From assembly GCA_038062115.1 (NCBI GenBank), contig JBBTXS010000023.1, forward strand, positions 1 through 38,377: a stretch of DNA of 38,377 nucleotides, in the 5' to 3' direction. Below the pieces are notes generated by a model. The model was not told where the DNA came from. It worked only from the letters and a program-made list of their open reading frames with translations, and made no database searches. Source of the DNA: Patescibacteria group bacterium. Lineage in GTDB: Bacteria > Patescibacteriota > Microgenomatia > Levybacterales > UBA12049. How positions within the stretch are numbered: position 1 is the stretch's first letter; every line of letters begins with the position of its first letter. A program made the translations under genes and the position numbers. This document shows positions 9,272 to 32,670 of this stretch, in pieces.

Positions 9272-9456
9272 TGTCAGACAAGAATAGAAATGTCCTATTT
9301 AAGAGACACAATAAGTTACATGGTTTGTCATCCCGACCGTAGCGATAGCGGAGTGGAGGGATCTGTTTGACCTGAGCCTGTTGAGAGAGATTCCTCGACT
9401 CCGTTTCACTGCACTCGGAATGACAAAAAAGCGGACATTTCTATTCTTGTCTGACA
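9272..9456. mobile_element. 185-bp MITE with 24-bp perfect TIR (TGT..ACA), enclosing a family A palindrome (9326-9425)
   Basis: TGTCAGACAAGAATAGAAATGTCC...GGACATTTCTATTCTTGTCTGACA; no clear TSD. Confidence 0.88.
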
Positions 9457-9669
9457 TACCCATTTCATGTTTTAGATGAAAAAAGGAGTAAAATAGAAGA
9501 AATTGAAGTAATTATGGATAATTTACGTGTTTATCCTACACTGCTCCCAAGAAATACTGCAGAAATGTAAGTGGCTGGGAATTAGAAATTGTTCCTGGCA
9601 TAGAACATTTATCCTATCCATGGTAAAATACTATTTGCAAACCGTTACATAATCAAATCTAATTATATT

Positions 9670-11157
9670 GTGATTACAAACAAACTTAAAAAACTATTTT
9701 ATTTTCCAATAGCATCCTATTTCAAATTTTTTGCCCAAATTAGATTAACGCGTTGGAAGCCGAGAATTATTGTGGTAACTGGTTCGAGTGGCAAAACAAC
9801 ATTACTGCATCTTATAGAATCCCAACTTCAAAATAAAGCAAGATACTCTCATTTTGCAAATAGTAGCTATGGAATTCCGTTTGATATTTTGGGATTAAGA
9901 CGCAAGAACCTAACATTAGACGAATGGCCATATCTCTTTTTGGCTGCTCCTTTTAAGGCATTTAAAAAAACTCCAAAGGAAAAACTATATATTGTCGAAG
10001 CAGATTGCGATAGACCTTATGAAGGAAAATTTCTAGCGAATTCATTAAGACCTGAGATTACACTATGGACAAATGTCAGCAGAACCCATACAGCGAATTT
10101 TGATTATCTTGTAAAGAAAAACGAATGTCATTGCGAGGAGGAACGACGAAGCAATCTCACCAGAAAGAGATTGCCACACCAGTCTGCGGACTGGTTCGCA
10201 ATGACAAAGAATAGAAAGAGAAAAACTACCTTTAAGGTTGAAGAGGCGATAGCTCACGAGTTTGGATACTTTTTAGAAGAGACCAAATCTCTTGCTATTA
10301 TTAACAGCGACACTAAGCTAATTAAGCAGCAGTTAACAAGATCAAAAGCATCGGTCAAAAGTGTAACCCAAAAAGGTCTTACCGCCTACAATGTTTTTAA
10401 AGACCATACCGAGTTTAAAATTAATGGGGAAATTTACTCAATTAACGCTTTGCTTCCAAAAGAATCATCTCTTTCAATCCAAATGACCTTAATCCTTCTT
10501 GATTATCTCAAAATTAAACCCGACAACTCATTCTCCAAATTTAGCCTTCCACCTGGAAGGTGTAGTTTGTTTAAGGGAATCAAAAATATTACTATAATAG
10601 ATAGTTCTTATAACGCAACGCCAGATGGGGTTAAGTCTATACTTGAGATGTTTAACCTCTATCCTAGCAATAAGAAATGGCTAGTTTTAGGGGATATGAT
10701 TGAACTTGGCAACGAAGAGCAAGAAGAACATGAGAAATTGGCCGATGTAATTAATTCGATTAAATTAAATAAAATTATATTAGTTGGGCCTAGACTTTCA
10801 AAATATACCTATCCAAGACTAAAGGAACAGGGATTACGTATTTATTCTTCGAGCGATCAGGCGAAGCCTGAGAGTCGAGAAGTCTTATCAGAAAATAGTT
10901 CTCGACAAGACGGGTACCGTACGGTAACCCGTCAAGCTCGAACAATAAGAAATCCTGTAACTGAAAAGTTTATAATGCCGAAAGATGCATTAGATTATTT
11001 AGGCAAAAATTTACAGGGCGGTGAAACAATCTTATTTAAGGGAGCTAGATTTCTAGAGGGTATAATAGAACACTTATTACTTAATAAATATGATATTAAT
11101 AACTTATGCCGAAGAGAATTAGTTTGGCGAGAAAGGCGAAAAAAATGGGGAATTTAA
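9670..11157 (+). CDS. murF: Mur ligase (MurF-like) with two in-frame insertions
   Basis: VTGSSGKTT, PGR, IIDSSYNATP, LVLGDMIELG, ILFKG. Confidence 0.85.
   Translation: MITNKLKKLFYFPIASYFKFFAQIRLTRWKPRIIVVTGSSGKTTLLHLIESQLQNKARYSHFANSSYGIPFDILGLRRKNLTLDEWPYLFLAAPFKAFKKTPKEKLYIVEADCDRPYEGKFLANSLRPEITLWTNVSRTHTANFDYLVKKNECHCEEERRSNLTRKRLPHQSADWFAMTKNRKRKTTFKVEEAIAHEFGYFLEETKSLAIINSDTKLIKQQLTRSKASVKSVTQKGLTAYNVFKDHTEFKINGEIYSINALLPKESSLSIQMTLILLDYLKIKPDNSFSKFSLPPGRCSLFKGIKNITIIDSSYNATPDGVKSILEMFNLYPSNKKWLVLGDMIELGNEEQEEHEKLADVINSIKLNKIILVGPRLSKYTYPRLKEQGLRIYSSSDQAKPESREVLSENSSRQDGYRTVTRQARTIRNPVTEKFIMPKDALDYLGKNLQGGETILFKGARFLEGIIEHLLLNKYDINNLCRRELVWRERRKKWGI
10126..10206. repeat. Family A palindrome (81 bp), in-frame in the Mur ligase
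   Basis: TGTCATTGCGAG..GAAGCAATCTC..GAGATTGCCAC..CGCAATGACA; peptide CHCEEERRSNL...WFAMT. Confidence 0.92.
10842..10948. repeat. Family D palindrome with two nested mini-hairpins, in-frame in the Mur ligase
   Basis: TTATTCTTCGAGCG..AGTCGAGAAGT..AGTTCTCGAC..GCTCGAACAATAA. Confidence 0.9.
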
Positions 11158-11861
11158 ATAAAGCATTAATTATCCATGGTTGGACTTATTCCCTAGAAAA
11201 ATATAAAAAAATTGCAGAAGTTCTTATTCTTAAAGGGCTGCAAACCGACATTCTTAAGGTTCCGGGACTTACAGAAAAAATAGATAAACCTTGGAATCTT
11301 GATGATTATATTGACTGGCTTAAAAATAGAATAGATAAAGAAAAAGGTAAAGTTGTATTGATTGGACATTCGAATGGGGGTCGCATTGCTGGAGCATACG
11401 CAAGCCTGTACCCCCAAAAATTAGCTTATTTAGTTTTAATAGACAGCGCTGGAATTTCGCACGATGAATTCCACGTTAAATTACGACTTTTATTTTTTAC
11501 CACTCTTGCTAAGATTGGCAAGAAAATAGGCTCGTCGGCAATACTTAAAAACTTATTGTATAAATTGACTGGAGAAAGTGATTACAATAATGCTACTGCC
11601 GATATGAAAAAAACTATGACAAATCTTGTTAAATCGGATTTGTCGTTTTCCTTAAATAAAATTAACACTCCAACGTTAATTATATGGGGAGAATTGGATA
11701 AAGTTACTCCCTTAAGTGATGGAAAAATTATGCACAAGTTTATAAAAAACTCAAAATTATATATTGTAAAAGGAGCAAAGCATGCGCCCCATTTTACCCA
11801 CACAGAAGAAGTCGCAGAAATCATATCAAGGAGTATCCTTGCGCAAGGATACTCCTTGTAA
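11145..11861 (+). CDS. Alpha/beta hydrolase
   Basis: IIHGW, GHSNGG nucleophile elbow, WGELDKVTP, H-A-P-H; ATG 11145 preferred over 11106. Confidence 0.9.
   Translation: MGNLNKALIIHGWTYSLEKYKKIAEVLILKGLQTDILKVPGLTEKIDKPWNLDDYIDWLKNRIDKEKGKVVLIGHSNGGRIAGAYASLYPQKLAYLVLIDSAGISHDEFHVKLRLLFFTTLAKIGKKIGSSAILKNLLYKLTGESDYNNATADMKKTMTNLVKSDLSFSLNKINTPTLIIWGELDKVTPLSDGKIMHKFIKNSKLYIVKGAKHAPHFTHTEEVAEIISRSILAQGYSL
11827..11858. repeat. Perfect 32-bp palindrome forming the hydrolase C-terminus
   Basis: CAAGGAGTATCCTTGC|GCAAGGATACTCCTTG. Confidence 0.9.
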
Positions 11862-11866
11862 ATACC

Positions 11867-31476: not shown

Positions 31477-31520
31477 ATATGTTAACAATACGGGATTGTT
31501 ACAGATATAACACTCCTGTA
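31464..31520 (-). repeat. Family B 57-bp palindrome overlapping the pyrC stop
   Basis: TACCGAAGCGTAAATATGTTAACAATACGGGATTGTTACAGATATAACACTCCTGTA. Confidence 0.9.
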
Positions 31521-31524
31521 AATT

Positions 31525-32457
31525 TCATTTATTTCCACTATGAAACGCCTCATGGACCTCACGTAATTGCTTATTTGTGACGTGGGTGTAGATTTGAGTG
31601 GTAGATATATTCTTGTGTCCCAACATTTCTTGCACGCTTCTAATATCCGCACCGTTTGATAACAAATCTGTTGCGAATGAATGTCTTATAGTATGGACTG
31701 TGGCATCCACTGGCAAACGAGACAAACGAACATACTTTTTAACAATTCTCTCAACGCTTCTTGCCGTTAGCCTCATTTTCTCGCCATTATTTTCCTCAAC
31801 TACTCGTCCAGAATAGCGAATAAACAATGGCTTAAATTTATCTTTTCGCACATTTTGATACTTATTTAACCACATAGAAGCTCTTTCCGAAATAAAAACA
31901 ATTCTAGCTCTTCCTCCTTTTCCAATTACCCCAAACTCACGGCGCTCAAGATTTATGCTTTCCCGATTTAGACTGACTAGTTCCGAAACCCTAAGCCCCG
32001 TAGAAAACAATAGCTCTAAAATTGCCCTGTCTCTTAAACCTTCTTCTTTGGAAATATCTACACAATTTACTAATCTATCAATTTGCTCCTTTTCTAAAAA
32101 TTTTAAAGACCTGCTTTCTGTTTTTGGTAAATCAATCTTTGAAGGTTCTAAGGTTTTATGATCATTTTTTATTAAAAACCTCAAAAAAGATCTAAGCGCT
32201 ATAACATAATAATTTTGAGTAACCCTTTTTAATGTTAAACCTTTAGCATCAACTCTATTTGCCAAATAAACTCTGTATTTTCTTACAATTTGTAAGTCAA
32301 GATCAGAAATTGTTTTGTTAGGAAGGGACGCGGCAAACCATTCTGCAAATACTTTAAGATAATGTCTATAGTCTCGAATAGTAAGTTTTGAACAGTTTTT
32401 TTCTATTTCGAGGTATTCTAAAAATTGATCAATTAAAGCAGGCAAATTAGTATTCAT
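31525..32457 (-). CDS. XerC/XerD-family tyrosine recombinase
   Basis: RDRAILELLFSTGLRVSEL, GKGGRAR, HTIRHSFAT, QEMLGH, TTQIYTHV; ATG 32457. Confidence 0.95.
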   Translation of the reverse strand: MNTNLPALIDQFLEYLEIEKNCSKLTIRDYRHYLKVFAEWFAASLPNKTISDLDLQIVRKYRVYLANRVDAKGLTLKRVTQNYYVIALRSFLRFLIKNDHKTLEPSKIDLPKTESRSLKFLEKEQIDRLVNCVDISKEEGLRDRAILELLFSTGLRVSELVSLNRESINLERREFGVIGKGGRARIVFISERASMWLNKYQNVRKDKFKPLFIRYSGRVVEENNGEKMRLTARSVERIVKKYVRLSRLPVDATVHTIRHSFATDLLSNGADIRSVQEMLGHKNISTTQIYTHVTNKQLREVHEAFHSGNK

Positions 32458-32549
32458 AAAATCTTTTTTGCGATGCAAACGTTGCAAAATGGATAAACTA
32501 AAATATTATAACATATTTATTTTGCGACGCGCTAGCGTTGTAAAATGAC

Positions 32550-32670
32550 ACGAGTTTCGCACATTTGTCATTCCGTGCTTGACACGGAATCCATACAAAT
32601 AATTATTGGTATAGATTCCCGCTTTCGCGGGAATGACATGTAGGTATTCTACTAGAACTGCGAAGCTCGT
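32550..32670. mobile_element. 121-bp MITE with 12-bp TIR enclosing a family A palindrome (32566-32638)
   Basis: ACGAGTTTCGCA...TGCGAAGCTCGT; flanks AAATGAC / AAATGAA. Confidence 0.75.

Follow-up and report, generated by a model that had tools for sequence, protein, structure and literature searches.

The window, that is, the whole 38,377-nt stretch of Patescibacteria DNA analysed here (contig JBBTXS010000023.1), contains six shells, each of which encloses a pair of hairpins between terminal inverted repeats (TIRs). The first, S1 (3382-3532, 151 bp; no strand is assigned to this or the other elements and pairs), is a MITE of the IS4 family with a perfect 18-bp TIR and arms of 35 and 24 nt. It sits upstream of a pilin-like gene and is flanked by a 9-bp TSD (left copy 3373-3381 on the forward strand, right copy 3533-3541). 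Because the right TSD copy contains the first base of the neighbouring element at 3541-3640, S1 was likely inserted later than this neighbour. Its core (3416-3509) is an Ssn-type (CGTC/TGTC-tagged) head-to-head hairpin pair and shares 92% identity with one of the free pairs (C8:32886). The neighbour is a single-copy, recombinant IS66-type MITE with an imperfect 8-bp TSD, composed of a damaged left arm of the lineage found at 15090, a shortened core (3569-3612), and the right arm of a sister IS66-type lineage. S3 (9272-9456), a MITE of the IS1202 family (ISTde1-like), has TGT..ACA ends, a perfect 24-bp TIR, arms of 55 and 32 nt, and a core at 9326-9425; this copy lacks a TSD, and sister copies have TSDs of 14-16 bp. 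The IS66-family MITE S2 (15090-15212, 123 bp; 22-bp TIR with three mismatches; core 15118-15185) has a Y1 transposase gene on one side and gyrB on the other. It also has no TSD here and 8-bp TSDs at its sister copies. S4 (32549-32671, 123 bp; 13-bp TIR with two mismatches; core 32566-32638) is IS1634-like and has a 5-bp TSD (32544-32548 and 32672-32676). A member of a fifth shell family, S5, is truncated by the window end and represented by its left end and the start of its hairpin pair (38325-38377); elements of this family are about 110 bp long with TSDs of about 10 bp. A preliminary description of this DNA had reported shells around TGTCA..TGACA at 3382, 9272, 3541, 15090, and 32550. All five were located, each with a folding core, and only the last had to be widened by one base on each side. 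The cores of these five elements out-fold shuffled sequences (z between -2.6 and -6.5), and an Rfam search of the window gave no match. Near-full-length copies in the genome (at least 90% identity, window copy included) number six for the element at 3382, six for 15090, 12 for 32549, two for 9272, and one for 3541; the 9272 shell has three further variants of 161 bp each.

Other hairpin pairs in the window are free. One lies within a Mur ligase reading frame (10127-10205). Another (20415-20518) is in frame in a gene that is probably gyrA, judged by a motif, where it is a near-clean insertion relative to the shortest orthologs. A third (26198-26287) is in frame in the gene for the carbamoyl-phosphate synthase small chain, in a loop that is occupied by other hairpins in the genomes G171 and G006. 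Two pairs are intergenic (17269-17331 and 17535-17622), and further free pairs lie at 19705-19788, 24265-24350, 37753-37818, and 38107-38169. In the two genes examined for the insertion footprint, the net change was about 0-3 bases. Cores at least 85% identical occur both free and in unrelated shells, mostly with only 0-4 flanking bases in common, and the core is thus a discrete unit. Judged by its sequence, this "family A" core is a head-to-head pair of CGTC/Ssn-related hairpins, since it combines the CGTC/TGTC tag, a short stem-loop, and the head-to-head dimer, and hairpins of this kind also surround small GIY-YIG genes in this genome. Such genes are flanked by inverted core-type hairpins at C8:46249, C16:2527, and C16:16180; the flanking hairpins are of the Ssn type and also of a second type. 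The genome (G000) contains 29 matches to the SRM pattern versus 1-3 in shuffles, and 150 hairpin pairs versus 0-1 in each of five shuffles. A search for the identity of the element targeting the hairpins led to no assignment. The TGT..ACA ends had been likened to those of IS481/IS1202, which is correct as regards IS1202 for the 9272 shell alone; the TGTCA..TGACA ends of the cores are CGTC/Ssn hairpin tags. Reading the core as IS481-type ends was rejected, as the cores fold as paired stem-loops and free pairs lie in frame without a TSD-like gain in length.

The shells are multi-copy MITEs with family-typical TSDs that stem from IS4, IS66, and IS1202 elements, and the S4 shells were probably derived from IS1634. 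They are 100-185 bp long, have TIRs of 13-24 bp, lack a transposase gene, and are dispersed as whole units. The TSDs mostly measure 9 bp (S1), 8 bp (S2), 14-16 bp (S3), and 5 bp (S4), from which we infer that the MITEs are mobilised in trans by the parent transposase. For S1, the same TIR bounds a full-length IS of 1374 bp whose transposase belongs to the IS4 family (NF033591, 171.5 bits, cut-off 152). For S2, the 1508-bp element L123 shares the TIR and encodes an IS66 transposase (NF033517, 241 bits, cut-off 180). IS66 elements have GTAA ends and 8-bp TSDs, and S2 has both. The TGT ends and the TSDs of 14, 15, and 16 bp in S3 fit the ISTde1 subgroup, and the S3 TIR also occurs at an ISNCY transposase remnant in G000, a fragment that scores 134 bits with NF033594 (cut-off 250). 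The IS1634 elements found have ends similar but not identical to S4, and where IS ends do show the exact S4 TIR, the contig breaks off and the gene is missing; a search for a direct S4 parent with a transposase found none. In G000, which is 85% complete, no intact cognate IS4 transposase was detected, the DDE_Tnp_1 search returning only an IS1634 gene. Scans of viral contigs for S4 and S3 ends yielded chance matches only (12 and 8 stretches, respectively). Four public runs contained no empty-site alleles over window positions 2800-17800, but their contigs break at the repeats, which makes this negative result uninformative.

The arms of the MITEs match the parental IS ends until a few bases before the hairpin. 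For one parental IS4 end the cut point varies between lineages (27, 28, 34, and about 44 nt), as do the cores, and 63 arm lineages were distinguished among 152 elements. That parental ends are cut at different points implies many independent births. Chimeric shells occur at C22:14-125, C36:27659-27842, and 3541 in the window, and in L014; the C22 chimera, at a contig start, may be a mis-join. The elements at 3541 and 15090 had been regarded as copies of one composite because of their common left junction. What they share is limited to the left arm and some 10 bases of the core; the rest of the core and the right arm differ, so that the recombinant at 3541 is no evidence of copying as a unit, which is instead documented by the five other copies of the 15090 element. 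The more general proposal that hairpins hitch-hike on several IS families is borne out, because units of shell and core recur at many loci with family-specific TSDs. Its companion, the collapse of IS elements around an internal hairpin, describes the outcome well in that the arms match parental ends up to the hairpin, but the IS relatives were found without hairpins, which argues that the hairpin is foreign and arrived later.

In this genome 66 of the 150 hairpin pairs lie in shells. Conversely, a pair is present in 69 of 69 two-ended elements versus an intergenic background of 1.5%, which excludes the cargo frequency equal to background that had been named as refuting hitch-hiking; arm motifs flank a random position on both sides at a rate of 0.00175. 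The figure of 69 is a corrected count, because the energy filter misses AT-looped S4 cores (37 of 55 flagged versus 53 of 55 hairpin-cored on reading), and its arm motifs were adjusted after the hairpin flanks had been seen. Searches for TIRs and TSDs that are blind to the interior are therefore the fair tests. Such a search of G000 agrees and recovered seven end families with hairpin cores; 99 singletons and four core-less families had been left out before counting, the latter being two hairpin families flanked by TAAAC-like repeats and two tandem-repeat artefacts. In the genome G342, 39 of 39 elements from eight families had a hairpin core, and two other hairpin families also act as cores. 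Here 75 singletons and nine families were left out beforehand. Of the nine, five were artefacts of tandem or AT-rich sequence, one was a loose pair, one was a duplicate, one consisted of the bare cores of a single family, and one, of 57 bp, belongs to another hairpin repeat. Two surveys with end-pair patterns detected the hairpin-cored architecture in 10 and 4 of 301 genomes, and exact TSDs surround most de novo matches. Among 60 IS4-end matches in species genomes, all 19 closed short elements contain a pair, and none was seen at full-length IS4 elements (n = 3) or at IS ends at contig breaks (n = 23). Neither end of the full-length IS66 carries a pair, and the intermediate, an IS with a hairpin pair inside, was encountered in none of four full-length elements. 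Only two empty shells were found, both IS66-type (49 bp at C9:146719, and 146 bp), local, and without TSD. Nearly all miniature elements here, from at least seven end families, have their interior replaced by a hairpin pair. This suggests that hairpins likely help miniature transposons to form and then spread inside them.

The explanation we favour, with belief and doubt evenly balanced, is that these MITEs are two IS ends (of IS4, IS66, IS1202, or probably IS1634) with a foreign Ssn-type pair in place of the interior, likely copied as units by the transposase of the end family. They were likely born when a pair entered an IS and the interior was subsequently deleted as far as the edges of the hairpins. 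This account draws on the ends and TSDs, the unit copies, the hairpin-free IS relatives, the arms that track the parental end to near the hairpin, and the GIY-YIG-type cores; the birth step, in which the pair replaces the IS interior, is what we infer from them. The pair would be the gene-less form of a hairpin-nuclease-hairpin cassette and would be moved by that nuclease. According to PMC11893778, SsnA cleaves single-stranded DNA immediately 5' of a hairpin of this sort. If each strand were cut in single-stranded form at the base of the hairpin, deletions could run outward from there and end variously short of the TIR, and the transposase would amplify only those products with both ends kept and a total length that can be looped. 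Hairpin exchange and recombination inside shared half-hairpins may account for later swaps of cores and arms. Several observations speak against this explanation: the intermediate was not encountered, two empty shells exist, the length phasing is weak, and G000 yielded no intact cognate IS4 transposase. The almost clean insertion in the two genes examined also indicates that large deletions are not the usual footprint of free pairs, and as several hairpin families serve equally as cores the effect is not Ssn-specific.

Total element lengths cluster near 114, 124, 134, and 143 bp, and three S4 lineages total 124-125 bp despite cores of 72, 76, and 84 bp. This clustering weakly suggests helical phasing. 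With three doubtful lineages excluded and one reassigned to S4, the periodicity has p = 0.0016 on 60 lineage lengths, which are not independent, and p = 0.17 on unique lengths; the best IS66 period lies at the band edge, and the IS4 periodicity is not significant. Out of sample, p was 0.065 for 11 new IS66-type lengths and 0.017 after two later S4 lengths had been added, and the controls gave 0.25 (free pairs) and 0.82 (cores). A wider claim, which we advance tentatively and consider possible rather than probable, is that hairpin-specific single-strand nucleases are MITE factories: any DDE-family MITE here would be born when a nuclease-mobilised pair replaces an IS interior, and only lengths in helical phase would be amplified.

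Alternatively, the target may have come first. A deletion would leave a tiny, empty palindromic shell of 35-60 bp, too short to transpose, and a pair with a preference for palindromes would enter the middle of this shell, making it long enough to transpose as a MITE. Free pairs indeed go in cleanly and with sharp boundaries, in most families the two arms add up to only 35-60 nt, the 49-bp shell at C9:146719 is an example of the postulated size, and similar flanks were taken as "target palindromes" by Di Nocera et al. (2013, PMC3733652). However, none of the empty shells found has the arms of a filled lineage, compared with 69 filled ones, unlinked targets were not found in the 2013 study either, and longer empty deletion products, expected to be transposable already, are almost absent. 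Dozens of lineages would also have had to receive a pair in a 50-bp target that is rare and single-copy. We regard this scenario as rather unlikely. Selection could also act alone: if empty and filled MITEs both arise, foldable interiors might persist through host tolerance or transposase preference, for example as an RNA terminator or stabiliser or as a flexible hinge in synapsis. This would accommodate the use of any folded hairpin family as a core, the intergenic position of 47 of 50 shelled pairs (in an earlier, energy-filtered count), and the two empty shells that are local and lack TSDs. It is improbable, though: it leaves unexplained how a hairpin came to be placed within 13-60 nt of either end in such a large number of lineages, and the length clustering points to a duplex loop instead of an extruded hinge. 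Also improbable is the capture by IS ends of a whole hairpin-nuclease gene-hairpin cassette, with later gene loss leaving the pair in the shell. The core-type hairpins on both sides of small GIY-YIG genes, Ssn-type and second type, and the 223-bp IS4 element L098, with about 100 extra bases between its half-hairpins, would fit, but a TIR pair surrounds the nuclease cassette at none of 14 loci examined and the problem of capture is merely shifted one step back. Coincidence of common intergenic hairpins or mis-joined repeats, as one might suspect from the chimera 14 bases from a contig start and from public contigs breaking at these repeats, is refuted by the occupancy counts, the exact TSDs, and the recurrence in both surveys.

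Known systems resemble parts of this architecture. Bacterial MITEs such as Correia, RUP, and Nezha arise from IS by internal deletion (PMC3189936, PMC3733652). The elements here are like these classical MITEs in being shorter than 300 bp, mostly intergenic, and present in many copies, with parental TIRs, TSDs, and no transposase, but the interior of nearly every element is a foreign mobile hairpin pair, and 7-8 end families per genome and many separate births are involved. With the CGTC-tagged REPs (Di Nocera, De Gregorio, and Rocco, 2013; PMC3733652) the cores share the TGTC/CGTC tag, 8-9-bp stems, head-to-head dimers, and some copies in frame in genes. According to the main text of that paper, CGTC-1 dimers of Halothiobacillus always lie within a 41-bp palindrome with no empty target; flanks are treated there as insertion targets and links to transposase genes only as fortuitous, whereas here the flanks are IS ends with TSDs and parent families. 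The arrangement of small GIY-YIG genes with hairpins on both sides is shared with the Ssn nucleases and NTS/SRM repeats (Chenal et al., 2025; PMC11893778). Single-strand-specific cleavage next to a hairpin has been shown for other homologs in that study, the main text of which does not use the term MITE, describe pairs within IS ends, or show hairpin mobility; the nucleases here are predicted from their genes. S3 resembles the ISTde1 subgroup of the IS1202 family (bioRxiv 10.1101/2022.12.17.520857) in its TGT ends and in TSDs of 14-16 bp versus direct repeats of 15-17 bp there, a comparison based on ends and TSDs, but differs in being non-autonomous and hairpin-cored. In REPIN-RAYT systems, too, what moves is a doublet of inverted hairpins that corresponds to a nuclease cassette without its gene (PMC3189936, PMC3733652); here the predicted nuclease is of the GIY-YIG type, and the doublet has a second route of spread, which is DDE-driven and takes place inside MITEs. 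A search of mainly open literature, at the level of main texts, found no published description of hairpin-cored MITEs across IS families apart from a passing remark in 2013.

The findings join two open questions, the origin of bacterial MITEs from full-length IS and the spread of CGTC-type REPs, which have no transposase dedicated to them. Mobilisation of CGTC REPs by a broad spectrum of transposases has been proposed (PMC3733652), and the 66 of 150 pairs in G000 that were placed by DDE-type shells support this suggestion. The near-total occupancy over many separate births implies that MITE formation in these genomes is not plain internal deletion. If nucleases do act as MITE factories, the origin of bacterial MITEs would have a general and testable explanation, CGTC REPs would possess a second way to spread, and one selfish system would have been built from another.

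The shells named in the preliminary description, that is, MITE ends around a core, are all present (3382-3532, 3541-3640, 9272-9456, 15090-15212 and 32549-32671), and one more starts at 38325 and is truncated by the window end. They are dispersed MITEs whose TSD length is specific to each family, and the genome that contains the window as contig C23 (1.04 Mb, 85% complete) holds three shell families besides those with IS4, IS66, IS1202 and IS1634-like ends. The shell at 3382 has IS4 ends: its TIR also bounds a 1374-bp element whose transposase scores above the NF033591 cut-off. 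The shell at 15090 has IS66 ends, and a 1508-bp element encodes a transposase above the NF033517 cut-off. The ends of the 9272 shell match an ISNCY transposase remnant in this genome. Its sister copies share their TGT ends and the size class of their TSDs (14-16 bp) with the ISTde1 subgroup of IS1202, for which TGT ends and 15-17-bp direct repeats are among the features described (bioRxiv 10.1101/2022.12.17.520857). The shell at 32549 has ends like those of IS1634 and 5-bp TSDs; a parental IS carrying its transposase gene was looked for and not found. One MITE of this family is inserted within the IS1202 remnant of this genome (C9:127574-128477, locus L206).

The core of these shells, "family A", consists of two TGTC/CGTC-tagged stem-loops arranged head-to-head (TGTCA..TGACA), and the window shell cores fold with z scores of -2.6 to -6.5. 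This core is no IS481-type element. Instead, the pair matches the CGTC REPs treated in PMC3733652 and the Ssn-related motifs treated in PMC11893778, and the published SRM pattern has 29 matches in the genome versus 1-3 in each of five shuffles. Three intact small GIY-YIG genes in the genome are bordered by inverted copies of family A hairpins, and a fourth is interrupted by a MITE of the 38325 family (C7:38957-39270, L007). Because GIY-YIG genes carry inverted copies of the same hairpins as flanks, the pair looks like a nuclease cassette minus its gene. Nine additional pairs in the window are free of any shell, three of them in frame within genes. In the carbamoyl-phosphate synthase small chain, one and the same loop carries a different in-frame hairpin insert in each of three genomes (window 26198-26287; L372 in G171; L374 in G006). 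A second family of hairpin pairs, tagged TATTCTTCGAG, occurs in the window at 10843-10947, 12470-12553, 13078-13168, 13670 and 29591; in genomes G416 and G342 it borders a distinct small GIY-YIG gene (L247, L259) and also serves as a MITE core. Hairpins of a third family, CACCTCGGAGGTG, lie outside any shell in the window (2393-2456, 17436-17513) but act as MITE cores in other genomes (L151, L171, L191).

The pairing of these two kinds of selfish DNA, hairpin pairs and MITEs, is real and near-universal in the genome. There, 150 pairs were found versus 0-1 per shuffle, 66 with arms (shell sequence outside the core) on both sides, 8 with an arm on one side and 76 free. The preliminary description had proposed weighing the frequency of such cargo in MITEs against the intergenic background, and the two are not equal: all 69 two-ended elements contain a pair (recognised by script in 65 and by reading in 4), versus 1.5% of 22,521 random intergenic windows of equal length that contain a whole pair. 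The arm motifs behind the former count had been tuned on hairpin flanks, and the enrichment test was therefore repeated blind to the interior. In this genome, the TIR and TSD search yielded 160 candidates and 11 multi-member families, seven with IS-type ends and all seven cored (42 entries, including one duplicate and one mutated tag). In 949 kb of G342, from another family of the class, it yielded 142 candidates and eight families with IS ends, in which 39 of 39 elements were cored (24 Ssn-type, 13 second type, 2 third type). Across 301 genomes, end-pair patterns of the IS66 type occurred in 10 and those of the 32549 type in 4; all 16 IS66-type loci retrieved fold (z -2.2 to -10.2), and 11 of 11 matches of the latter type have a hairpin core. 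The only coreless shells found, in a loose TIR-first search of the genome, are two neighboring IS66-type shells that lack a TSD (C9:146719-146767, 49 bp; 147401-147546, 146 bp), with a lone end at 148073.

The core is foreign and discrete and has been gained or swapped many times, because the IS relatives are free of hairpins, the cut points vary, and closely similar cores occur both free and in unrelated shells. Sixty IS4-end matches in species genomes, sorted by reading, comprised 19 closed short elements (19/19 cored), 3 cored elements with the far end damaged or missing, 4 loci representing three full-length IS, 23 IS ends at contig breaks, 2 lone ends and 9 apparently chance matches. Within the stretches read, no hairpin pair was present in the full-length IS4 copies, the IS ends at contig breaks or the full-length IS66 element. 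MITE arms track the parental end as far as the hairpin, for 34 nt at 3382 and about 55 nt in one IS1202 lineage, and a single IS4 end is truncated at 27, 28, 34 and about 44 nt in separate lineages, each with a different core. Altogether, 152 elements represent 63 arm lineages; their cores belong to the three named hairpin families in 145 cases, to other folded types in 5, and are unfolded loose matches in 2. Cores at least 85% identical were found both free and in unrelated shells, commonly with 0-4 shared flanking bases.

Some elements are chimeras. The elements at 3541 and 15090 do share the left junction described for them, as the left arm of the former belongs to the 15090 lineage. Its core is shortened, however, and its right arm derives from a sister IS66-type lineage; this single-copy element is a recombinant rather than a unit copy of the 15090 element. 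The 3382 element likely inserted later, because its 9-bp duplication takes in the first base of the 3541 element. In further chimeras arms of different families are joined at the hairpin; one, at a contig start, may be an artefact.

Lineage lengths cluster at about 104, 114, 123-124, 134 and 143 bp, with 3 or 4 as the last digit in 29 of 60. A jitter test of this periodicity gave p=0.0016, but with unique lengths p was 0.17 and for IS4 the result was not significant; new lineages gave p=0.065 (n=11) and p=0.017 (n=13), and free pairs and bare cores had no period. Three lineages of the 32549 type total 124-125 bp despite cores of 72, 76 and 84 bp. Against the background of DNA looping and helical phase in the transposase complex, the clustering and the constant totals with varying cores weakly suggest that total length is selected via looping in this complex; our literature search found no paper on looping or helical phase for element length.

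Other repeats accompany these elements. A multi-copy element, collapsed and with hairpins close to each of its ends, is placed exactly behind the TGTCAT tag of pairs within MITEs of three shell families, at all four left junctions (contig ends C8:79800, C14:10414, C17:19403 and C31:48); right junctions lie at the ends of C2, C9, C13 and C21 (see also L207 and L208). A 570-640-base piece occurs in public contigs at about 4x local depth, and the element is possibly of the IS200/IS605 type or REP-targeting. A Y1 (RAYT-like) transposase gene (14309-15001) lies between 48-nt repeats (14258-14305, 15014-15061) that recur at 17338, 24109 and 31464. Two hairpin-rich families with TAAAC-like flanking repeats lack the Ssn-type core (3677-3786, 1296-1373, 3214-3291); they measure 110 bp (7 ends found) and 66-100 bp (7 copies), with two copies within pilin-like genes. 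Short tandem heptamer arrays, often in inverted blocks between genes, are abundant (25324, 27679, 27780 and many sites genome-wide). The small contigs C5 and C18 encode long cysteine-rich proteins unlike the remaining genome and may be binning contamination.

Observed are the structure of the elements, their copying as units, the hairpin-free IS relatives and the variable cut points; their birth may be pictured as follows. The hairpin pair would be moved by its own nuclease. Since SsnA cleaves single strands just 5' of a hairpin (PMC11893778), SsnA-like cutting would be expected to cause breaks at both outer edges of the pair. Deletions from these breaks could remove the IS interior, and the transposase would then amplify the surviving products. 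Entry of pairs into tiny empty shells is a serious rival to this deletion route, because no intermediate of the latter was seen and free pairs are inserted almost cleanly. Capture of a whole nuclease cassette by IS ends, followed by loss of the gene, found nothing in its favor at 14 nuclease loci.

All three components have been described before: MITEs, CGTC dimers and Ssn cassettes. In the literature searched, nothing came nearer than a remark made in passing that all CGTC-1 dimers of Halothiobacillus sit in a palindrome of 41 bp and that empty targets are lacking (PMC3733652). The account of the CGTC-1 flanks there did not recognise IS ends, whereas the shell flanks described here are IS-type ends.
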